Assembly: GCA_964517275.1 (NCBI GenBank) | Contig: CAZFBL010000001.1 | Location: 14,144 to 78,143, forward strand | Reading direction: 5' to 3' | From: an uncultured Candidatus Saccharibacteria bacterium | Lineage (GTDB): Bacteria > Patescibacteriota > Minisyncoccia > Portnoybacterales > UBA2143 | Length of the DNA stretch: 64,000 nt | Shown here: positions 6,993-56,341 of the stretch, piece by piece | Position numbering within the stretch: position 1 is the first letter of the stretch | How the letters are laid out: the number at the start of each line of letters is the position of its first letter | Translations under genes and position numbers: made by a program | Notes under the pieces: model-generated | Seen by the model: only the letters and a program-made list of their open reading frames with translations | Told to the model about the DNA's origin: nothing | The model's database searches: none

Positions 6993-7856
6993 TTAAATAT
7001 TAAATAATTCCCGGGCGCTTTTAGTTGTTTGTCCGGCCACCTCGGCTAACTTTATTCCCTTAATCTCGGCAATTTTCTCGGCAACCAGCTTAACGTAAAG
7101 CGGTTCGTTACGTTTACTCCGATGAGGAAACGGGGTTAGATAAGGACAATCGGTTTCTAATAAAATTCTATCTAAGGGAAGATTTTTAATAACCTTGTCA
7201 TAATCGCGAGCGTAAGTGATTAAACCATTAAATCCGAAATAAAAGCCCATACTCATTAATTTTTCGGCCTGCGACCAGCGGCCCATAAAGCAATGAAGCA
7301 CTCCCCTAATCTTTTTATTACCGGCACCCGGACAACTAAAAGGACAATTAAGACAGCTATTTGACAAACAGTCTAAAATTTCAATCAAATCATCATAAGC
7401 CTTGCGGCAATGAAAAATTACCGGCTTATCTGTTTGTTGGGCCAATTCTAACTGTTCCAATAAAACTTGCTTTTGCTTATCCTTAGCTTCCTGACTGATT
7501 CCATCGCCATATTCCAAACCGATTTCGCCCATAGCTATCGCCTTAGGATTAGCCAATAGTTTCTGGTATTTTTCCGGCTCAAACTCTTCCAATTCCCGAC
7601 TTTCATCTTGAGCGCCTCTGTCTTGTTCAAGATTATCCTGATGAACGTGGCTGGGGTGAATGCCAACGGCTGCATAAACTCCCTCTTTATATTTTTGAGC
7701 ATATTCAACCGCCCGCCGGCTGGTACTATATTGAGCGCCAACATTAACTAGCCAGACATTTTCCTTCAAGGTCCGTTTGATTACCTGGTCGCCATCTTCT
7801 TTATAAGCGTTAAAATTAATATGAGCGTGGCTGTCAATTAAAAAAGGCTTAGCCAT
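6993..7856 (-). CDS. tatD: TatD-family metal-dependent hydrolase/DNase
   Basis: DSHAHINF, GEIGLEYG, IFHCRKA, ETDCPYL motifs. Confidence 0.8.
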   Translation of the reverse strand: MAKPFLIDSHAHINFNAYKEDGDQVIKRTLKENVWLVNVGAQYSTSRRAVEYAQKYKEGVYAAVGIHPSHVHQDNLEQDRGAQDESRELEEFEPEKYQKLLANPKAIAMGEIGLEYGDGISQEAKDKQKQVLLEQLELAQQTDKPVIFHCRKAYDDLIEILDCLSNSCLNCPFSCPGAGNKKIRGVLHCFMGRWSQAEKLMSMGFYFGFNGLITYARDYDKVIKNLPLDRILLETDCPYLTPFPHRSKRNEPLYVKLVAEKIAEIKGIKLAEVAGQTTKSARELFNI

Positions 7857-7937: not shown

Positions 7938-8684
7938 ATGGCTGACTATATTTTTTTAGGCGTTCTTCAGGGAATATTTGAATGGATTCCCATTTCCAGC
8001 GAGGGCATTGTCGCTCTGGCCAGTCATTTTTTAATTGAAGAAATTAATCCGATTGATATTGCCTTATTTTTACATCTAGGCACTTTTTTAGCTGTACTCA
8101 TTTATTTCAGAAAAGACTGGCTGGAAATTCTTTCGTTTAAAAATCTTCCCCTGCTCCGTTTTCTAATTATTGCCACCCTTATTTCTTTGGCTGTCGGCTA
8201 CCCTTTTTATAAAATGATCAGCCAAGCAACCAGCGGAGCCATTCTCTTATTCATTGTCGGCCTGGGTTTATTGCTAACTGCCCAAGCTCACAAATTCAAA
8301 AAGTCATTTAGTTTAGGTTCAGCCAAAAATCTAAATAAATTGGCTGTTTTGACCGGCTTTTTACAAGGTCTGGCTGTTATTCCCGGTCTTTCCCGTTCTG
8401 GAGCAACCATTTTTGGTCTGTCTTTAGGCCAGTTATCGCCAAGACAAATTCTCAAAATATCCTACATAATGTCCGCTCCTTTGGTTTTGGTTTCCAGCGC
8501 TTATCTTTTTTGGCAGAATCACCTTCTAATAGCTGGTTGGCCCTCGCTGGCGGCCAGTTTTCTGGTTGGCCTGGCCAGTTTATCTCTTTTAATGAAATTG
8601 GCTGAAAAAATAAACTTCTATCGTTTCGCTTTGATTTTCGCCTTACTTTGTTTTATGGGCGGCTTCATCGGTTTAGTTATTTAA
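7938..8684 (+). CDS. uppP: Undecaprenyl-diphosphatase (BacA/UppP)
   Basis: LQGIFEWIPISSEG matches the GxxQGxxEFLPISSSG motif. Polytopic membrane protein. Confidence 0.8.
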   Translation: MADYIFLGVLQGIFEWIPISSEGIVALASHFLIEEINPIDIALFLHLGTFLAVLIYFRKDWLEILSFKNLPLLRFLIIATLISLAVGYPFYKMISQATSGAILLFIVGLGLLLTAQAHKFKKSFSLGSAKNLNKLAVLTGFLQGLAVIPGLSRSGATIFGLSLGQLSPRQILKISYIMSAPLVLVSSAYLFWQNHLLIAGWPSLAASFLVGLASLSLLMKLAEKINFYRFALIFALLCFMGGFIGLVI

Positions 8685-8712
8685 AAAACAGGCCGAGACC
8701 GGCCTGTTTTTT
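8683..8712. terminator. Bidirectional intrinsic terminator (AAAAAACAGGCC-GAGACC-GGCCTGTTTTTT)
   Basis: Perfect GC-rich hairpin flanked by an A-run and a T-run, between convergent uppP and metG. Confidence 0.6.
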
Positions 8713-8713
8713 A

Positions 8714-8796
8714 GGAAAAGGCCTGGCCTTGCCCAACTCAGACTGTAATTACTAGTTAGTTCTGAAAATTTTAGCCGGAAAGGCCAGGCCTTTTCC
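8714..8796. repeat. Conserved stem-loop intergenic element, copy A: 15-bp perfect stem GGAAAAGGCCTGGCC/GGCCAGGCCTTTTCC around a 53-nt conserved loop
   Basis: Near-identical copy at 56208..56290. A stem mismatch in one copy is matched by a compensatory change in the other. Confidence 0.6.
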
Positions 8797-8831
8797 TACG
8801 GCCTGTTTTTAAAAATGAAACTATAAAGGAT

Positions 8832-10259
8832 TTACAATCGCGGAAATAAAACCGCGCTTTTTTTATTTTGTTTGACTTGCTCCTTTATTTTTCCTGCTGT
8901 TTCCGGTATAAACGGTTCTAATAAACCAGCAATTTCTTTTAAGGCATTTAAAAGCGCTCCTAACGATTTCTTGGCCTTTTCAGAATCATTTTTGACTAAT
9001 TCCCAAATTTTATTTCTATCCACAAACTCATCGCAAGCGCCGACCAAACGCCAAACCGCCTCTAAAGCCTCATTGAACTTTATTTCTTCCATCGCCTTTT
9101 TGTATTTTTCTTGAGTTGATTTAATTTCTTTAGCTAATTGACCTTCAACAGACTTAGTTGGCTCCGTCTTCTCCGATAAAGTTAAAACCCGACTGACCAA
9201 ATTGCCCAATCCGTTGGCTAAGTCAGCATTATAACGTTCTTCAAAACGTTTAATCGAAAAATCACCATCCTGACCGAAAGAAATTTCCCTTAACAGGAAA
9301 TACCTCAAGGCATCAGCCCCGTATTTGTCAGCTAAATAAACCGGGTCAATAACATTGCCCAGGGTTTTACTCATCTTTTGGCCATTAATCGTAAAAAAGC
9401 CGTGAACGAATATTTTTTTCGGCGGCTTTAAGCCAACCGCTAACAATAGAGCCGGCCAAAAAATAGCGTGGAATTTGACGATATCTTTAGCGATTAAATG
9501 CAAATCAGCTGGCCATAATTCTTTAAATTGCTTTGGATTATTTTCATAGCCAATAGCCGTGATATAGTTTTGAAGAGCTTCCACCCAGACGTAAATTTTC
9601 TGTTCCCCGTCAAAAGGCAAATCAATTCCCCATTTGACTTTCTGACGAGAAATAGAAAGATTGCCCAAGTCTTGTTTCAATAAAGAAAGAACCTCTTTTT
9701 TTCTTTCAGGCGGCTCAATAATCATCTGGTCGGTAGTAATTAATTTTTTGACCTGAGGTAAAAAATCTTTCAGTTTGAAAAAATAATTAGTTTCGGAAAC
9801 TAACTGAGGTTCTTTTTTATGAATTGGACATTTACCGTCAACTAAATCCTTTTTAAAAATAAAATCCTCGCAATTAGGACAATAAAGGGCCTTATATTCG
9901 TCTTGATAAATCTTACCGCTTTCTTTAAGTTTTAATAAAAATTTGGTTACCCCTTCTTGATGTCTCTTGTCAGTTGTCCTGATAAAATCATTGTATTTAA
10001 TATTAAGTTTTTGCCAGGCATCCTTAAACTGTTGGGCTATTTTATCAACAAATTCTTGAGGCGACTGTCCGGCTTTTTGAGCCGCTTGAGCAATGTGTTC
10101 GCCATGCTCGTCAGTACCGGTCAAAAAGAAAACCTTCTCGCCTTGTTGCCGACGATAACGCGCCAAAACATCAGCCGCTACGGTCGTGTAAGCCGTACCG
10201 ATATGAGGCGGCTGATTAGTATAGTAAATAGGGGTGGTGATATAGAATTTCTTGGCCAT
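8832..10259 (-). CDS. metG: Methionyl-tRNA synthetase (short form)
   Basis: PIYYTNQPPHIGTAYTTV (HIGH variant HIGT). KMSKTLGNV. 475 aa. Confidence 0.9.
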   Translation of the reverse strand: MAKKFYITTPIYYTNQPPHIGTAYTTVAADVLARYRRQQGEKVFFLTGTDEHGEHIAQAAQKAGQSPQEFVDKIAQQFKDAWQKLNIKYNDFIRTTDKRHQEGVTKFLLKLKESGKIYQDEYKALYCPNCEDFIFKKDLVDGKCPIHKKEPQLVSETNYFFKLKDFLPQVKKLITTDQMIIEPPERKKEVLSLLKQDLGNLSISRQKVKWGIDLPFDGEQKIYVWVEALQNYITAIGYENNPKQFKELWPADLHLIAKDIVKFHAIFWPALLLAVGLKPPKKIFVHGFFTINGQKMSKTLGNVIDPVYLADKYGADALRYFLLREISFGQDGDFSIKRFEERYNADLANGLGNLVSRVLTLSEKTEPTKSVEGQLAKEIKSTQEKYKKAMEEIKFNEALEAVWRLVGACDEFVDRNKIWELVKNDSEKAKKSLGALLNALKEIAGLLEPFIPETAGKIKEQVKQNKKSAVLFPRL

Positions 10260-11011: not shown

Positions 11012-11124
11012 TTCTCAAGAAAATCAAGGTTCAACCCTTCCAATAGCAATCTTCAACGTTTAGTTATCCTTCAGTGCTTAGATGCGAAGGCTAAACCTTA
11101 ATTTTCTTTAATTCCAATTTCTTT

Positions 11125-15048: not shown

Positions 15049-16917
15049 TTATTCAACAACGATGCCGTCTTGTCGACTGACCTGAGGATCGTCAGGCAAA
15101 TCTGTATCAATGGCCGAGCTAATACTTTCTAAGCTCAAACCAGTAAAAGTATCTTGACCAGTCGCTTTTGATTGACCGATTAGTTCGACAAAACCGCCTA
15201 AATGGGCCAAACCCGGAGTGATTGCTACCTGAAAGGCGACCTGCTTAACCGGCAGAAGAAGACCGGTCGCGGCTGGCAAATCGCCAACCCGCCAAGTCAA
15301 ACGGCCGGTTTGAGAATTATAACTTAGATTCTCGTTACTCGGACTAATCTTGCTCTGCCATTGAACATGAGGCGGCAGAGAAGCTTCAACCCTAACCTCT
15401 TCTAAATCATTGGCCGTATTAATTAATCGCCATTTAATTGTATAAGTAGTTGTCTGACCGACCTTCGGCGGAATTGACCCGCTGTTAGGAATCAAATCGT
15501 CATAATAGTATCCCTTGGTTTGCAAAGTCAACTGACTGGCTATCTTGCTGATTAACTGACTCTGGCCGGCAATTTGGATATCGCCCAGAGAGAGCGGTAC
15601 TTGGCTAGAGTCGATTTCGACCTTGTTAGTCACTTTAAAGTTCTTATCGCCATAGCTGTTAATCGGCAGCGGGTCCTTAATCTTAATCGAAAAACTCAGC
15701 TGACCATCCTGGCCGGGCCCCAGAAATTCCAAAGCCGGCAGGTTGCTCGTCTTCCAGGTAATCGTCCGGCTAGCCCCGTCAAAAGAGCCTTTTTCTAGAT
15801 CGAGACTGGATAAATCAAAAGCGGCCCCGTTTAGTTCCGAAGTTATGACGACCTCGCTAATACCGACATCAGTCGTATTTTGATAATCAATCAAATAATT
15901 TAACTTCTCGCCGGTCTCGGCTATATAATCCGTCTGGCCGTTAATGGTCTGACTTACTGATAAAGGCGACGAGGAAATCTCTAGAGCGTTGACTGTCTTG
16001 GCAATCAGTTCAAACTCTTCTTCTTCTTCAAAAACGCCTAATTCTGCTTTAAATGATTGAGCCTGGCCCTGTTCGCCTTGAATTAAACCTTGAATAAAAA
16101 TCTTTCCCTCCTGGCCGGCCATCAAACTATCCAATAGCCAAATATTATTTTCCTCTGCCGGCTGCGGATCGGCCGATTGGAAAGTAAAATCAGTTGGGTA
16201 GTTAATCTTAATCCCTAAATCTTCAAAAGAAACCTCGGCCTGGTTTACGTATTTCAAAGAGAATTTAAAAGACTGACCGCTAACCAGGCGACTGGGCAAA
16301 TCTAAATCTAAAATAAGGGGAACCGAAATTATTTCGTTTGAGAACTCGGCCCGATTGGTATAGGTAGAACTAAGACCGGTCGGCTGATAACTTAATTCGG
16401 CCCAAGCTGTTTTCTTCTCATCTTTTAAACCAATAATCCGGGCCGGCAGCTCGATTCGTTTCTCCTGGCCAACCGCTAAATTATCCAGTTCGATTGTCTG
16501 AACCAAATCATCTGTCTCTAAGGGAATTGACTGCTCAGGGTAATGAAAGACCAATCGGAGCTGAGTCAGTTCTAAACGAGTCTGGTTTTGACACCTGACC
16601 GTATAGGCTACTTCTTCGCCGCTAATTACTCTTTCCGCCCCGCCTACCTCTAATCTGACCTTATCTTTATCAAAGGAAGTTAGACCATGCCAAAAGAGCC
16701 AGCCGATGATAATCAGAAAGACAAGACCAGCCAGACCGCCAGCTAGCCAATATTTCCTCTGTCTCGGTGACAGACCTTTTTTCTTTAATTCCGGCCAATC
16801 GGAAGGAGTTCTCTTTTCCGGCTGACGGCCGGGTTGAAAGACCTCGGGCGGCTTAGCCCGCTCGCCAAATTGAGCGCCCGGTTTATAAATTTTCTTTTTT
16901 AATTCTTCAAGGGCCAT
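15049..16917 (-). CDS. Hypothetical membrane-anchored protein (N-terminal TM, large extracytoplasmic region)
   Basis: 622-aa ORF, TM LAGGLAGLVFLIIIGWLFW. No recognisable catalytic motif. Confidence 0.5.
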   Translation of the reverse strand: MALEELKKKIYKPGAQFGERAKPPEVFQPGRQPEKRTPSDWPELKKKGLSPRQRKYWLAGGLAGLVFLIIIGWLFWHGLTSFDKDKVRLEVGGAERVISGEEVAYTVRCQNQTRLELTQLRLVFHYPEQSIPLETDDLVQTIELDNLAVGQEKRIELPARIIGLKDEKKTAWAELSYQPTGLSSTYTNRAEFSNEIISVPLILDLDLPSRLVSGQSFKFSLKYVNQAEVSFEDLGIKINYPTDFTFQSADPQPAEENNIWLLDSLMAGQEGKIFIQGLIQGEQGQAQSFKAELGVFEEEEEFELIAKTVNALEISSSPLSVSQTINGQTDYIAETGEKLNYLIDYQNTTDVGISEVVITSELNGAAFDLSSLDLEKGSFDGASRTITWKTSNLPALEFLGPGQDGQLSFSIKIKDPLPINSYGDKNFKVTNKVEIDSSQVPLSLGDIQIAGQSQLISKIASQLTLQTKGYYYDDLIPNSGSIPPKVGQTTTYTIKWRLINTANDLEEVRVEASLPPHVQWQSKISPSNENLSYNSQTGRLTWRVGDLPAATGLLLPVKQVAFQVAITPGLAHLGGFVELIGQSKATGQDTFTGLSLESISSAIDTDLPDDPQVSRQDGIVVE

Positions 16918-25758: not shown

Positions 25759-26691
25759 TTAAATCTCGGCCACCAATAAATCCAAGGCTGTTGGACCATC
25801 CAAGCGGCCTTTTTTTATAGCCAAATCAATTTCCAGCAAGCGTTGGTAGATTCTCTTCAGCTGGTCCAAGCTGAAATTTTGAAGGACTGACCAGTTTTTT
25901 TTAACTGCATAGGGATGAAGACCGCTTTTTTTAGCCAAAGTATGGTAGGGCGTTCCCCGGCTGATTAAATCCTTAAGTTTAAGCAAACCGCGCAGTTGAT
26001 AAATAAACATGGTTAGTAAATAGATTTCGTTTTCACCTTGATTTAAATGTTCGTGCAAAAGCTTCAAGGCCGTTTTTTTATCTCGTTGAGCCAGAGCATC
26101 CAAGGTTTTGAAAATATTAACCTCTATCTTGGGTCCAACCAACAAATCGATATCTTCTTCATTAATCGGCTGGCCGGCTCTATAGCTAGCCAGTTTGTTA
26201 AGCTGGTTATTAATCTGCCAAAGGTCGTTGTCCGAATAAGAAACTAGTTTTTTAAGAGCGTCTAGACTAATAGCTATCTTCTGTCTAGCTGCTTCTTTTT
26301 TCAGCCAATTAACCAAATATGCTCCGCTTAATGGTTTAAACTCTTCAAACATAGTCAGCCAGGATTTAAAAGGAGTGATGGCTAACTTGCCTTCTTGATG
26401 AATAACTAAAATGATATCCTGATTTTGTTTTAGTTTATTCTTCTTAACGTATTCAGAAAATTCCCCTAAGAAACTTTTGTTCTCAAAAATGTTTTCCAAA
26501 ATAATTAATTTCTTCTCATCGAACATAGAAACCGACTCCACTTTTTCTTTGACTTGAGAAAAATCCAAATCTTCTTCGCGGAAGCGAACCAAATTTAGGC
26601 CAGTTCTGTGCTTAGTCTGGTATTGTCCGATAATTTCTTTTAATTTTTGCCGCGAGCGATAACTATCCTCGCCGTAGAGAAGAATGAGCAT
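25759..26691 (-). CDS. holA: DNA polymerase III delta subunit
   Basis: MLILLYGEDSYRSRQKLKEI... is a typical HolA N-terminus. The ORF track extends to 26889, but that extension overlaps the intergenic palindromic element. Confidence 0.6.
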   Translation of the reverse strand: MLILLYGEDSYRSRQKLKEIIGQYQTKHRTGLNLVRFREEDLDFSQVKEKVESVSMFDEKKLIILENIFENKSFLGEFSEYVKKNKLKQNQDIILVIHQEGKLAITPFKSWLTMFEEFKPLSGAYLVNWLKKEAARQKIAISLDALKKLVSYSDNDLWQINNQLNKLASYRAGQPINEEDIDLLVGPKIEVNIFKTLDALAQRDKKTALKLLHEHLNQGENEIYLLTMFIYQLRGLLKLKDLISRGTPYHTLAKKSGLHPYAVKKNWSVLQNFSLDQLKRIYQRLLEIDLAIKKGRLDGPTALDLLVAEI

Positions 26692-26706
26692 AAAAAAGTT
26701 AGTGAA

Positions 26707-26877
26707 GAGGATTGTCCTAACCATTTCGAGAAACCTAGATGACAAAAGCGGCAGCCATTTGTGGCTAAGAAATGGGGCGAGCTTTTGGCATCTCGGAGCC
26801 GCCACAACAATATAGATAGAAAACAAATTAATTAACGGTGGCGGCGTTTTCGAAAAATGGTTAGGACAATCCCTAGA
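26707..26877. repeat. Palindromic intergenic element of about 170 bp with 18-22-bp terminal inverted repeats (GGATTGTCCTAACCATTT) and a nested GCCGCCAC/GTGGCGGC hairpin
   Basis: Left arm 26709-26730 pairs with right arm 26851-26872. CTAG at both ends. Confidence 0.5.
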
Positions 26878-26879
26878 AA

Positions 26880-27908
26880 CTATCGCCAAGTTACATCTTG
26901 GTAAGGCTCAACCATTTCTATCCAAATTTGGCCGGGAATAAAGGGTATTTCCTGACCCGCTTCATCCAAAAATTTAAGTTTGCTGGCCGGATTCTTCTCG
27001 CTTTTTTGCCAAGTACCATCAATGACTATTCCATTTTGATAAATTTGACAATCGCCTGTTCCCTCTAAATCCAAATCATTATAGTCTGGCCCTTCAATCT
27101 GTTTAGAAACCACCCGCATAACAACCACATTTTTAGCGGCAATCTGCTGGTTATTATCTTTATCTATTTCTTTTAAATTAGTCCGGTAACGCAGATAGGA
27201 ATTGGTCGCTGGTTCATACTGATAGGATACGTTATACGGATAAGAATAGCCAATTCTTAAAACCCGACGATTAGCCTCTTGGCTTTCACCTTGGCCGTGC
27301 GGATAACCCTCAAATTTATTTTCTAAACGATAGCCTAATTTTTGAGCACTGTTTAATAGCCGCTCCATCGAAGTAAAGCCGTTATGCGGCTGAGGAATGC
27401 TTTGTTTCTGATAAAAGGCGTTGTAGGGGTTTTTAAGAGCGTCAATGTTGTCCATCATTCCAGTGTCCAATTTGTCCAAGGCGAAATGAGAACCGCCCCA
27501 ATGGACTAAAATGGCGTCTAAGCCAAGGGCTAAAGGGATAAAATCATGACGGGCGCTGCGCAAAGAACCGATTTCGGTCGGCTCCTGACAAACGTAAAGA
27601 GCAACCATCCGGGTAATGCTGTTGGTAATAACCGGCATTTCCAAAACCAAATCAGCTTGGGAAAGACCGGCCAACGGCCGGGTAACAGGGTCTTCGGCCA
27701 AAACAACGGCTAGCGGCCGCCGTTGATAGTTTTGGCAGACTAAACCTGACAGCGGACTGCTCCCGTTCAGCTCTCCCTGATTTACCGAACTGGCCGGCTG
27801 ACCGCCTATTTCAACGGTCCGGCTGGCTCGCTGCCAAATAAAAATTAGCCCGAAGGCTAAAATAAGAAAAATGAAAAATAACCAACCTCTTTTTCTTAAC
27901 TTAAACAT
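26880..27908 (-). CDS. DUF3048 domain protein (YerB-like), N-terminal TM/signal anchor
   Basis: RPLAVVLAEDPVTRPLAGLSQADLVLEMPVITNSITRMVALY matches the DUF3048 core. Confidence 0.6.
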   Translation of the reverse strand: MFKLRKRGWLFFIFLILAFGLIFIWQRASRTVEIGGQPASSVNQGELNGSSPLSGLVCQNYQRRPLAVVLAEDPVTRPLAGLSQADLVLEMPVITNSITRMVALYVCQEPTEIGSLRSARHDFIPLALGLDAILVHWGGSHFALDKLDTGMMDNIDALKNPYNAFYQKQSIPQPHNGFTSMERLLNSAQKLGYRLENKFEGYPHGQGESQEANRRVLRIGYSYPYNVSYQYEPATNSYLRYRTNLKEIDKDNNQQIAAKNVVVMRVVSKQIEGPDYNDLDLEGTGDCQIYQNGIVIDGTWQKSEKNPASKLKFLDEAGQEIPFIPGQIWIEMVEPYQDVTWR

Positions 27909-30298: not shown

Positions 30299-30898
30299 CT
30301 ATTCCCATTCAATAACGAATTCGTGGTAGGGGTCGCCCCGGAAAACGCATTTAGTCTCTTTAATAGTCATTTTATCGGTTTTGACCGCCAGCAAGGCAAC
30401 TGATTTAAAGTATCCTCTGAAATACTGGCAGAGAATCGGATGAACCTTAAAATCTTTGAGTCGGAGGACTAATCGTTTCGTATCAACATTAACTTCCGGC
30501 GCCTCCAGTTGGCCAATCGAATAATGCTCCCTCCAATATTTGGCACTCTCATTGAAGGTCTTATCCAAGGAGACAAAGTATCTTAAAAGAGCCCTGACAA
30601 TAAAAGAATGCTTGGGAGCGGCGTAGCCCATTTCCAATATTTCCTTCTCGCCCCAGCCAAAAGTCTCTTTGATGATTAATAATGAAATGGCTCGCCAGCT
30701 CAAAGGATACCAACCAGTTGCTCTGATTTCCTTACCATAACTGATCGGCTGGCCGGTTTTTTTAATAGCCGCTTCAACTTTTTTAAGCCCGGCTTGCCCC
30801 TTTTTTTCCAAAATATACTGGGCGTCAGTCTGAAAAACGACTCCTCTGGCTTGTCCTTTTACTTTTAGTATTTTGTCAATTTCATTCTTGGTTAGCAT
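30299..30898 (-). CDS. V4R-like ligand-binding domain protein (paralogue 2)
   Basis: C-terminal HPILCQYFRGYF...ETKCVFRGDPYHEFVIEWE resembles the V4R core (C..G.....EteC...GDpyCeF). 3' end identical at nucleotide level to the neighbour. Confidence 0.5.
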   Translation of the reverse strand: MLTKNEIDKILKVKGQARGVVFQTDAQYILEKKGQAGLKKVEAAIKKTGQPISYGKEIRATGWYPLSWRAISLLIIKETFGWGEKEILEMGYAAPKHSFIVRALLRYFVSLDKTFNESAKYWREHYSIGQLEAPEVNVDTKRLVLRLKDFKVHPILCQYFRGYFKSVALLAVKTDKMTIKETKCVFRGDPYHEFVIEWE

Positions 30899-30928: not shown

Positions 30929-31555
30929 TTATTGATACCTATAGACATAGACGAATTCGTGGTAGGGGTCGCCCCGGAAAACGCATTTAGTTTCCTCGGC
31001 TCTAACTACTTTCGCCCCAACAATCATCTCAATAAGTTTGGAAAAGACTCCGAGAAGATAAGGACAGACAACCGGATGTTTTTTAAAATCTTCCAGTCTG
31101 ACGACAATCAGTTTTTTCTTCTCGTCATATTTATTAATCTTAACCCGACCAAAGGTATAGAATTTTCTCCAACTATCTGCTCCCATCTTAAGGGTCGTCT
31201 CGACTGACATAAAATATCTCAAGAATCTTTTTATTCCCAAATGGGAATAGACTACCGACTGACCCATTTTCATAATCTCTTCTTCCCGCCAGTTAAAACA
31301 TTTAGCGCTGGCCAGCATAAAGATGGTTGGCCAACTGCTCGGAATCCAATCCATATCCTTTATCTTAGACAGGTCCGGCAATTCGTAGCCACATCTTTTC
31401 AGTTCGGCTTTTACTTTCTTAAATCCATCCTCCCCTTTTTCTCGTCTTACATAGCTGACTAGAAACTTTATGTCATTCCCTCTTTCTTTGCCCGTATCAT
31501 CCTTTTGTATCTCTTTGATCGCTTTTTTCAAATCTATTTTATCTAAATCCAACAT
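30929..31555 (-). CDS. V4R-like ligand-binding domain protein (paralogue 1)
   Basis: HPVVCPYLLGVF...ETKCVFRGDPYHEFVYVYRYQ. Tandem paralogue of 30299..30898. Confidence 0.5.
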   Translation of the reverse strand: MLDLDKIDLKKAIKEIQKDDTGKERGNDIKFLVSYVRREKGEDGFKKVKAELKRCGYELPDLSKIKDMDWIPSSWPTIFMLASAKCFNWREEEIMKMGQSVVYSHLGIKRFLRYFMSVETTLKMGADSWRKFYTFGRVKINKYDEKKKLIVVRLEDFKKHPVVCPYLLGVFSKLIEMIVGAKVVRAEETKCVFRGDPYHEFVYVYRYQ

Positions 31556-34645: not shown

Positions 34646-34701
34646 GACTTTTCGGCTGACGGTTTTTTAAGCAAACATTATCTGGATAAACCTTTAATAT
34701 C

Positions 34702-34857
34702 AACTAACCTGTAGGCAATGACTCTCAGCCTGAGAACAGAGAGAAAAGGCTTTTCCGAGGAATATCCCAGTCGGAACCAAGATATCCTAAAGACTAAGAT
34801 AAAACCCCTATCGGACCCTATTTAAAAAATTGAGCCCTTATTGCCTACAGATTAGTT
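34702..34857. repeat. Inverted-repeat-flanked intergenic element (18-bp IR AACTAACCTGTAGGCAAT / ATTGCCTACAGATTAGTT, 17/18) enclosing about 120 bp
   Basis: Lies in the 279-bp pilB-ruvB spacer. Internal small palindromes CTCAGCCTGAG and GAAAAGGCTTTTCC. Confidence 0.45.
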
Positions 34858-34924
34858 AATATTAAAAAGGGACGACTTAATTGTCCTTCCTAACTATTAA
34901 GTATAATAGCAAACTATCGTCAAA

Positions 34925-48908: not shown

Positions 48909-50264
48909 CTAACTATAAATTCTTTCCTTGATTAAATTTATTTCTTGTAGGAGTGATTCGTTATTTTCAATATTCTTATTGATTTTTTGGTAGGCATACA
49001 TAACTGTTGTATGGTCGCGGCCGCCTATTTTTTCACCGATATATGGGTAAGAACCGTTAAGTTCTTCGCGAATTAGATACATAGTTATCTGACGGGGATA
49101 AACCAACTCTTTTTTTCGAGAACGGTTGATTAATTCATTAATACTGATATCATAAAATTCAGCGACTGCCTTAAGAATATTTTTTAAATTAGTCTTTCTT
49201 TTTGGGCTACTAATGATTTTAGAAAGAATCTGTGAGGTATTTTTTAAATTAGGTGAAATTTCATTCATTTGACAAAAAACAATTAATCTATTAAGCGCAC
49301 CTTCTAATTCTCTGATATTTTTTTGGACATTATTGGCAATGTAATTTACGACTTCTTCTTGTATTTTGAAATTTTTATCCTTAACTTTACTTCTAAGGAT
49401 AGCCATTCTTGTCTCTAAGTCGGGATAACTAATATCAGCAATCATTCCTCCTTCAAAACGGGAACGAAGTCTTTCTTCTAAAGTAGAAATTGCCTTGGGT
49501 GGCCGGTCAGAACTAATGATAATTTGCTTATTTTTCTGATAAAGAGAATTAAAGGTGTGGAAAAATTCCTCTTGGGTCTTCTCTTTGCCGGCAATGAAAT
49601 GAATATCGTCAATAATTAAAGTGTCTATTTTCTGGTATTTCTTTTTAAAACTATCCATTCCTTTTTTGGAAATAGCGTCAACTAGTTCGCTGGTGTATTT
49701 TTCAGAACTAAGATATTTAACTTTTTTATTGGGATATTTTTTAACTAACTCATTCCCGACAGCCTGAAGAAGATGAGTTTTACCTAGACCGACTCCGCCG
49801 TAAATAAAAAGAGGGTTGTAAAGCGTGCCTAAATGTTTAATAACCCCCAGGCCGGCCGCCTGGGCCAGTTCATTAAAGGAGCCGATAACAAAATTTTCAA
49901 AACTGTATTTAGGGTTTAGATTGGTTTCTCCATTAACATTAAACTCCTGGAATTTAAGTTGGTCTTCAGAGAAAGTGAAAGGAGGTTTTCTTTTAGCTGG
50001 ACTGGTTTCCAAAATAACTCCTCCCTCGATAATGAATTTAATTTCTTTGATATCAGGAGAATTATTACGTAGGATTTTTAAAATGAGTTTATTATATTTA
50101 TTTTCCAGCCATTCTTTAGTAAATGCGTTAGGGACGCCAATAGTAATCACTCCATCTTTTTTTGAGTGAATCCTGGTGTTTCTGAACCAAGTGATAAAAT
50201 TAGCTTTGGAAATACTTAATTCTATTTCGCCTAAGATAGCCTGCCAGAGTTCTTTTAAATTCAT
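48909..50264 (-). CDS. dnaA: Chromosomal replication initiator DnaA
   Basis: AAA+ Walker A GGVGLGKTHLL. DnaA signature and C-terminal DNA-binding helix region. Confidence 0.95.
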   Translation of the reverse strand: MNLKELWQAILGEIELSISKANFITWFRNTRIHSKKDGVITIGVPNAFTKEWLENKYNKLILKILRNNSPDIKEIKFIIEGGVILETSPAKRKPPFTFSEDQLKFQEFNVNGETNLNPKYSFENFVIGSFNELAQAAGLGVIKHLGTLYNPLFIYGGVGLGKTHLLQAVGNELVKKYPNKKVKYLSSEKYTSELVDAISKKGMDSFKKKYQKIDTLIIDDIHFIAGKEKTQEEFFHTFNSLYQKNKQIIISSDRPPKAISTLEERLRSRFEGGMIADISYPDLETRMAILRSKVKDKNFKIQEEVVNYIANNVQKNIRELEGALNRLIVFCQMNEISPNLKNTSQILSKIISSPKRKTNLKNILKAVAEFYDISINELINRSRKKELVYPRQITMYLIREELNGSYPYIGEKIGGRDHTTVMYAYQKINKNIENNESLLQEINLIKERIYS

Positions 50265-50521
50265 TGTGTTTTATCCGAGTTAAAATATTATAAAGAAAAA
50301 GGTGGTGAAAAATATTTCCTCTGTGCTTCAATTGACCGGATAATTGAAGAATCTGTTGTTATTCTACCACAATTAAAAAAATAATAAACAGGTCTTTTTT
50401 GTTAACAAGTTGTGGAAGAAGAGTGGATAAATTAAAGGCATAAATTAACAGCTTGTTGATTTGACGAAATACTCCTTAAATGCTAATCTGAATTAACAAA
50501 CCTTCTGTCTATTTTAATCCT
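50265..50521. promoter_or_regulatory. DnaA-box cluster upstream of dnaA (oriC part 1)
   Basis: TTATCCGAG (50267-75), CCGGATAA, TGTGGAAGA, AGTGGATAA (8/9 to TGTGGATAA). Confidence 0.5.
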
Positions 50522-50656
50522 ATGTCTATTACTTATCAACCCAAAAAGAAGAAACGCAAGAAAACCCACGGCTTTCGGGCTAGGATGGCTACTCGATACG
50601 GTCGACGGGTTTTGTCTCGTCGCCGGCGTAAACAACGGGAAAAAATAACCGTCTAG
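50522..50656 (+). CDS. rpmH: 50S ribosomal protein L34
   Basis: [44 protein letters not shown]. Not in the ORF track (44 aa). Confidence 0.85.
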
Positions 50657-50742
50657 TTTTATTGACTTAATGAGCGAAGGAAACGAAAATTTGTTTCTAT
50701 TTCCAAGCAAGTGAATTAATATATAGGTAATAAAATTTTTTA

Positions 50743-56207: not shown

Positions 56208-56290
56208 CGAGAAAAGGTCTGGCCTCGCCCAACCCAGCTCGTAATTATTGGTTAGTTTTGAAAATTTTAGTTGGAAAGGCCAGACCTTTT
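56208..56290. repeat. Conserved stem-loop intergenic element, copy B (GAAAAGGTCTGGCC...GGCCAGACCTTTTC), followed by two extra copies of the 3' arm
   Basis: About 85% identical to 8714..8796. The C-to-T change in the left arm is compensated by G-to-A in the right arm. Extra arms AAAAGGCCAGGCCTTTTC and GAAAGGCCAGACCTTTTCC through 56336. Confidence 0.6.
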
Positions 56291-56341
56291 CAAAAGGCCA
56301 GGCCTTTTCGAAAGGCCAGACCTTTTCCTTTCTACTGGTTA

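Follow-up and report, generated by a model that had tools for sequence, protein, structure and literature searches.

Two stem-loops in the 64-kb stretch of DNA analysed here (the window) are probably copies of a small, non-coding, non-autonomous mobile DNA hairpin of the MITE type. This reading follows from the dispersed intergenic copies, from a clean empty site with a 12-bp duplication in a relative, and from palindromic arms that occur alone and in tandem. Its main rival is a REPIN/RAYT system, which we consider rather unlikely. As judged by MetRS and other proteins, the host belongs to the Patescibacteria (CPR), with Candidatus Portnoybacteria as the nearest group. CPR/Patescibacteria genomes are tiny, gene-dense and usually thought to be repeat-poor. 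The element itself is of an ordinary kind, in a phylum for which our literature search found no paper describing MITEs, and it leaves the general picture unchanged. A lineage-specific hairpin repeat that inserted beside terminators both before and after a recent split nevertheless offers a way to mark strain-level evolution in uncultured bacteria, can account for contig breaks in CPR assemblies and provides a small test case of how palindromic mobile DNA keeps its arms complementary.

The copies and their family

Both stem-loops described in an initial, sequence-only reading are present, copy A as GGAAAAGGCCTGGCC-53 nt-GGCCAGGCCTTTTCC at 8714-8796 and copy B as listed in Table 1. At either end the inverted repeat of copy A is one base pair longer than had been noted, reaching TAGG...CCTA, and its 22-nt arms are 95% complementary. 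Copies A and B share 83% identity over 89 nt; the identity of the loops, put earlier at about 85%, comes closer to 81% on recount. The stem difference reported between them (C-G in one, T-A in the other) is indeed compensated, and the two extra copies of the 3' arm seen behind copy B do follow it in tandem. Folding of copy A gave -38 to -42 kcal/mol, and both hairpins are far more stable than their shuffles (z -4.7 to -6.1). The arm motif matches the window eight times against 0.1 expected. The plan of the element is one of ~20-bp terminal inverted repeats, preserved in every copy and with the 20-bp end sequence TAGGAAAAGGYCTGGCCTTG, enclosing an AT-rich interior of ~40 nt within a total of ~87 nt. 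The only open reading frames over an element of this size (87 nt) are spurious ones of 41-56 aa over copy B, none of them conserved. Convergent gene pairs flank both copies, as previously observed: BacA/UppP and MetRS in the case of copy A, Wzy_C and a beta-propeller protein in that of copy B.

Table 1 Positions in the window of the element copies and of the features associated with them.
Feature	Sequence	Position	Strand	Remarks
uppP bidirectional intrinsic terminator	AAAAAACAGGCC-GAGACC-GGCCTGTTTTTT	8683..8712		Directly past the uppP stop codon
Left direct repeat, 12 bp	CGGCCTGTTTTT	8700..8711	+	3' arm and T-tract of the uppP terminator, the putative target; single copy in the relative
Copy A, 87-nt element	TAGGAAAAGGCCTGGCC...GGCCAGGCCTTTTCCTA	8712..8798	+	Terminal inverted repeats of 22 nt at 8712-8733 and 8777-8798
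Right direct repeat, 12 bp	CGGCCTGTTTTT	8799..8810	+	Putative target-site duplication
Copy C, diverged member	AAGAAAATTAAGGTTTAGCC...GGGTTGAACCTTGATTTTCTT	11017..11108	-	Covariance model 27.9 bits, E 0.003
Copy B	AGAAAAGGTCTGGCC...GGCCAGACCTTTTC	56210..56291	+	
Extra 3'-arm palindromic units, 18 nt each, two in tandem	AAAAGGCCAGGCCTTTTC, GAAAGGCCAGACCTTTTC	56292-56309 and 56310-56327	+	

The sequence-only reading also held that a conserved 50-nt loop is untypical of a plain intrinsic terminator. The promoter and terminator scans call neither copy as a terminator: the loop of 40-50 nt is too long, and TA or CTG, not a T-run, comes after the stem. At gathering thresholds, only tmRNA and one tRNA pass in an Rfam search of the window and the element has no match. 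A permissive Rfam scan of the locus returned only sub-threshold matches to miRNA precursors, none of them above 29.6 bits where the cut-offs are 45 or higher, and these are generic long-hairpin noise.

A search for further copies, proposed in that reading, yielded a third copy in the window (C) and at least eight on other contigs. Copy C was found using a covariance model built on eight copies; its arms and loop align to family members, and its 22-bp stem contains four G.U pairs on the transcribed strand. The others reside on five short contigs of the metagenomes Ga0307421 and Ga0307422, from whose project the window also comes, namely L012, L056 (two), L069, L111 (two, of which one is truncated where the contig stops) and L121 (a tandem pair), and the relative L141 holds one more. 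Altogether the family comprises at least 11 copies at unrelated sites, a count to be read as a lower bound with most of the right arm fixed in the scan pattern. This arm-pattern scan of the metagenomes gave 119 stretches among the matches listed, nearly all of them chance, and the real copies on the five contigs were separated from chance matches by a profile search of the fetched loci. Apart from the element, the five contigs have nothing in common with the window.

Every copy seen is intergenic, a few to ~30 nt away from a stop codon or a terminator hairpin, with co-directional as well as convergent neighbours. The ends of short-read contigs fall within or beside copies (L132, L111), as expected of a repeat. 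No copy was detected in ~180 kb of more distant relatives. Scanning GTDB genomes with a loop-plus-arm pattern gave a single match, a chance one in a Bacteroidales MAG without the arms; in viral contigs the pattern of both arms had no match and the loop pattern two, both chance AT-rich stretches, and blastn against phage and plasmid collections found no homologue.

Occupied and empty sites

Contigs L126 and L127, whose MetRS is 91% identical, carry the same uppP/metG pair with a spacer of 50 nt that contains the terminator only, copy A being absent. In the alignment the relative reads ...GACCGGCCTATTTTT joined directly to AAAATGGG, the terminator running straight into AAAATG, whereas the window reads ...GACCGGCCTGTTTTT, then the element (TAGGAAAAGG...CCTTTTCCTA), then CGGCCTGTTTTT and AAAAATG. 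The extra DNA of the window consists precisely of the 87-nt inverted-repeat unit and one more CGGCCTGTTTTT. On both sides this direct repeat abuts the inverted repeat in the same register, which none of 2000 shuffles matched. Copy A sits at the 3' edge of the uppP terminator, a hairpin of -21 kcal/mol (z -8.3) that is kept in L126 and L127. As the relative's spacer holds the terminator only, copy A bears the signature of an 87-nt insertion with a 12-bp target duplication, a polarity that, as opposed to precise deletion, is read without an outgroup. The perfect duplication also speaks against the REPIN/RAYT rival; transposition of the IS200/IS605-like Y1 type is not known to make a target duplication.

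The spacer holding copy C measures 154 nt in the window and 70 nt in both L126 (91%) and L128 (86% MetRS identity), a difference of 84 nt. Since L126 and L128 carry the same short sequence at this site, parsimony favours reading copy C as inserted in the lineage of the window; its junctions there have decayed so that a duplication is undefinable. Copy B lies in a spacer of 163 nt, compared with -41 to +20 nt in the relatives L133-L136; its junctions are not alignable, as the Wzy_C C-termini of these relatives are too diverged for an exact empty site.

Other copies gave a less regular picture of duplication. The second copy on L056 (L056b) is flanked by a 9-bp direct repeat in asymmetric register, matched by 6 of 2000 shuffles and thus a probable duplication, while L111 shows a 5-bp flanking repeat that is not significant and the remaining copies show none. 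We count this unevenness against the MITE-type reading, since it is irregular for a single DDE transposase. The first copy on L056 (L056a) is a variant with the same arms around an unrelated interior and is also present at the orthologous site in L141 (a 91% relative), there with nested extra arms. As one member is common to the 91% relative, which lacks the element where the window has copies A and C, the family was active both before and after their split.

The clean insertion of copy A with its 12-bp duplication favours a DDE-type enzyme that makes staggered cuts and acts in trans. A transposase from elsewhere in the genome would bind the two identical ends, cut in a staggered manner and paste or copy the element, and in a gene-dense genome the survivors would be only those insertions that fell in short spacers behind stop codons or terminators. 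The arms would stay complementary if the element were recognised, or acted, as a folded single strand, either as DNA while being mobilised or as RNA, where read-through would make it a hairpin of a 3'-UTR or between cistrons. A scan of 36 window ORFs showed no transposase, integrase, reverse transcriptase or Y1/HUH protein, and our searches found no longer element bearing the same ends.

Palindromic arms, paired changes and competing readings

Each arm is itself a palindrome of 17-19 nt, AAAAGGYC-T-GGCCTTTT, which can also be written AAAAGGCC-W-GGCCTTTT (17 nt). The unit matches both strands, and arms in tandem fold on themselves. Solo, partial and tandem arm copies are located on the outer sides of full elements at copy B and in L069, L012, L111, L121 and L141. 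Tandem solo arms are a better fit to REP/BIME-like behaviour and count against the MITE-type reading. Under a REPIN-type explanation, the arm would be a REP-like palindrome and the 87-nt hairpin an inverted doublet with its spacer, which a RAYT encoded elsewhere by a single-copy gene would mobilise in the form of single-stranded DNA. The palindromic nature of each arm, the solo, tandem and nested arms beside full elements, and the member shared by L056 and L141 that combines the same arms with a different spacer all suit this explanation, as does the orientation of copies relative to genes (six same, one opposite). So does the hairpin of an inverted doublet and spacer with compensated changes, which resembles that described for REPINs (PMC3116915). 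However, the copies share no 5' flanking tetranucleotide, Y1_Tnp is absent among the scanned window ORFs, copies A and C have opposite orientations on the same side of dnaA, and three copies in 64 kb are few for a population of REPINs. To our knowledge, the REPIN/RAYT systems described so far are mostly proteobacterial, and the host here is a CPR bacterium.

Units of a similar kind occur in other contigs. L142, an 80% relative, has a palindromic unit of its own, 15 nt long (AAGGGACGCCCTT / AAGGGCGTCCCTT), which forms tandem and inverted arrays in three spacers of a 21-kb stretch (7186-7261, 9880-9990 and 15930-16020), a further point on the side of the REPIN-type explanation. One of these arrays includes a perfect 30+30-nt hairpin and occupies the spacer that in L056 and L141 contains the present element. 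L117, an unrelated metagenome contig with a GC content of 49%, has three hairpins (898-935, 1708-1745 and 2005-2045) made of an inverted pair of the near-identical arm motif AAAGGCCWGGCCTTTC without the interior; a T-run follows two of the three, and they look like a repeated terminator. Judging from the L117 hairpins and the L142 arrays, terminator-like palindromic units that multiply in spacers seem to be common in this group.

Returning to the MITE-type element, we compared stem pairing across eight copies and found 96% of the cells paired. Four pairs, in six cells, are changed on both sides, which shuffles reach in 7/500 and 0/500 cases, and these figures are a lower bound confined to the positions left free by the scan pattern, in which most of the right arm was fixed. 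In slid controls nothing changed on both sides, bar one pair (one cell) at slide -2. The compensated pairs are the outermost (T-A/C-G), two near the end (G-C/A-T) and the pair picked out by the sequence-only reading (T-A/C-G), at which the first copy on L121 (L121a) shows a T.G intermediate. The outer 20-bp stem thus stays paired through four compensated changes, whereas the inner 5-bp stem (CCAAC/GTTGG) displays uncompensated transitions only. The covariation from which a selected secondary structure had been argued is real, and it involves four stem pairs; but compensated changes are reported to be common in REPINs too (PMC3116915), which are mobile DNA hairpins, so on their own they are no proof of an RNA gene.

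Compensated changes in both ends are unexpected for ordinary protein-bound terminal inverted repeats, and we count them against the MITE-type reading. Quasi-palindrome template switching could yield such changes without selection. The changes can accordingly come from recognition or function of a folded single strand, or could come from template switching. A separate observation concerns strain variants of the uppP terminator (L003 and L004, 845-875, compared with window 8683-8712), in which the loop is inverted from GAGACC to GGTCTC and a stem pair is changed from G-C to A-T with compensation. The difference has the look of a hairpin inversion or a template switch and not of independent point mutations, so events of the hairpin-inversion type do, it seems, occur in this population.

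Recognition of the folded strand is also the core of another alternative that would account for the co-varying ends. In this case the family would represent a type of mobile element new to Patescibacteria that depends on its hairpin. It would land at the T-tract of intrinsic terminators and duplicate their 3' arm, rebuilding a terminator-like hairpin at the new junction (CAGGCC-N9-GGCCTG-TTTTT), and the enzyme moving it would belong neither to the classical DDE transposases nor to the classical RAYTs. Each related lineage would then hold its own unit, as L142 suggests. We regard this alternative as improbable, clearly more so than the REPIN-type explanation.

Transcription offers a different source of selection on pairing. 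As a cis-acting RNA, the hairpin would be read through from the upstream gene, and its 20-22-bp stem would protect the 3' end, attenuate read-through or be cut by RNase III; the covariation would then reflect selection on RNA, and mobility would only be the means by which the hairpin spread. Copy C fits, as its 22-bp stem is unbroken on the transcribed strand alone (four G.U pairs, no A.C, -33 kcal/mol), compared with four A.C mismatches and -21.7 kcal/mol on the other strand. The element is oriented with transcription in six of seven co-directional contexts, which is not significant. Copy C and the orientation bias thus hint weakly at a cis role of the transcribed hairpin. Further points in its favour are the copies located directly behind stop codons, the significance of the compensated changes, and the precedent of Correia and ERIC elements, for which cleavage by RNase III and effects on transcripts are documented (PMC10969869). 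Against this, close copies show no strand preference, since their one-sided transitions give G.U on the + sense three times and on the - sense four times. The inner stem changes are all uncompensated, the stem has no U-tract behind it and the element goes uncalled in the terminator scan, relatives lack it at the sites of copies A and C, and the loop is wholly replaceable, as in L056a. Overall, we think it unlikely that a cis-acting RNA explains the family.

An independent trans-acting sRNA gene in two paralogous copies is highly improbable: the hairpin is stable, the loop is ~81-96% conserved among close copies and copy B contains a weak promoter-like site on its minus strand, but no Rfam family matches beyond the miRNA-precursor noise, no promoter and terminator pair is common to the copies, the copies appear to be insertions missing from close relatives, partial and tandem arm debris surrounds them, and one element has the same arms with an unrelated loop. 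Among the three options offered by the sequence-only reading, the REP/MITE-like repeat family is therefore the one that stands, while the free-standing small RNA falls for want of an Rfam match and of a promoter and terminator of its own, with an interior that is replaceable and an inner stem that is uncompensated.

Known systems and other repeats in the window

The element resembles prokaryotic MITEs (such as Correia/NEMIS of Neisseria, ERIC, RUP and MITEAba12), which are likewise 80-150 nt long, intergenic and free of ORFs, with terminal inverted repeats of ~20 bp, an AT-rich interior and a long hairpin when transcribed. They also share a flanking target duplication with an empty site in a relative, seen here for copy A. 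In contrast to these MITEs, the duplication here reaches a length of 12 bp and differs from copy to copy, a parent IS with the same ends is not known, and the arms are palindromic, occur alone or in tandem and co-vary at the two ends.

REPINs and REP-BIMEs with their RAYTs (PMC3116915, Bertels & Rainey 2011) are similar in having two palindromic units inverted around a spacer, a hairpin fold with compensated changes, an extragenic location, singlets and clusters beside doublets, and lineage-specific families in related genomes. They differ from the present family in its 12-bp target duplication at copy A, its lack of a RAYT in the window, its density of 3 per 64 kb and the conservation among recent copies of the spacer as well as the arms. 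The repeat system described in PMC10969869 is comparable in that its unit, like the one here, resembles a terminator hairpin (A-run, GC stem, T-run), and in that units cluster with, and insert beside, other repeats in intergenic DNA. However, the two have no sequence relation, and the full element here is without a U-tract and is not called as a terminator.

Two further candidates were rejected. An integron attC site has RYYYAAC / GTTRRRY at the base of its hairpin and belongs to a cassette array beside an integron integrase; GCCCAAC and GTTGG are present here but within a 17-bp outer stem, the flanks are housekeeping genes and there is no integrase in the scanned ORFs. A TA duplication of the IS630/Tc1 type disagrees with the outermost pair, which covaries in inverted form (TA..TA, CA..TG) and not in direct form, and copy A would need an extra 12-bp duplication besides.

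The window contains other repeats. At 34693-34866, the 279-nt spacer between a T2SSE ATPase gene and ruvB contains an inverted repeat, possibly a second MITE-like element, whose 27-nt arms show 93% complementarity and are separated by 120 nt. Another inverted repeat (26709-26872), with 25-nt arms, 88% complementary and 114 nt apart, is located in the 5' part of the holA ORF (DNA polymerase III delta, 25759-26889). A 44-nt direct repeat of 98% identity (30315-30358 and 30951-30994) lies near the ends of the adjacent ORFs 30299-30898 and 30929-31555, which have no Pfam match and are probably recent tandem paralogues. Finally, dnaA and dnaN on the minus strand are separated by a gap of 478 nt from rnpA, yidC and a KH-domain gene on the plus strand (48909-50742), an arrangement from which we conclude that the window probably spans the replication origin.
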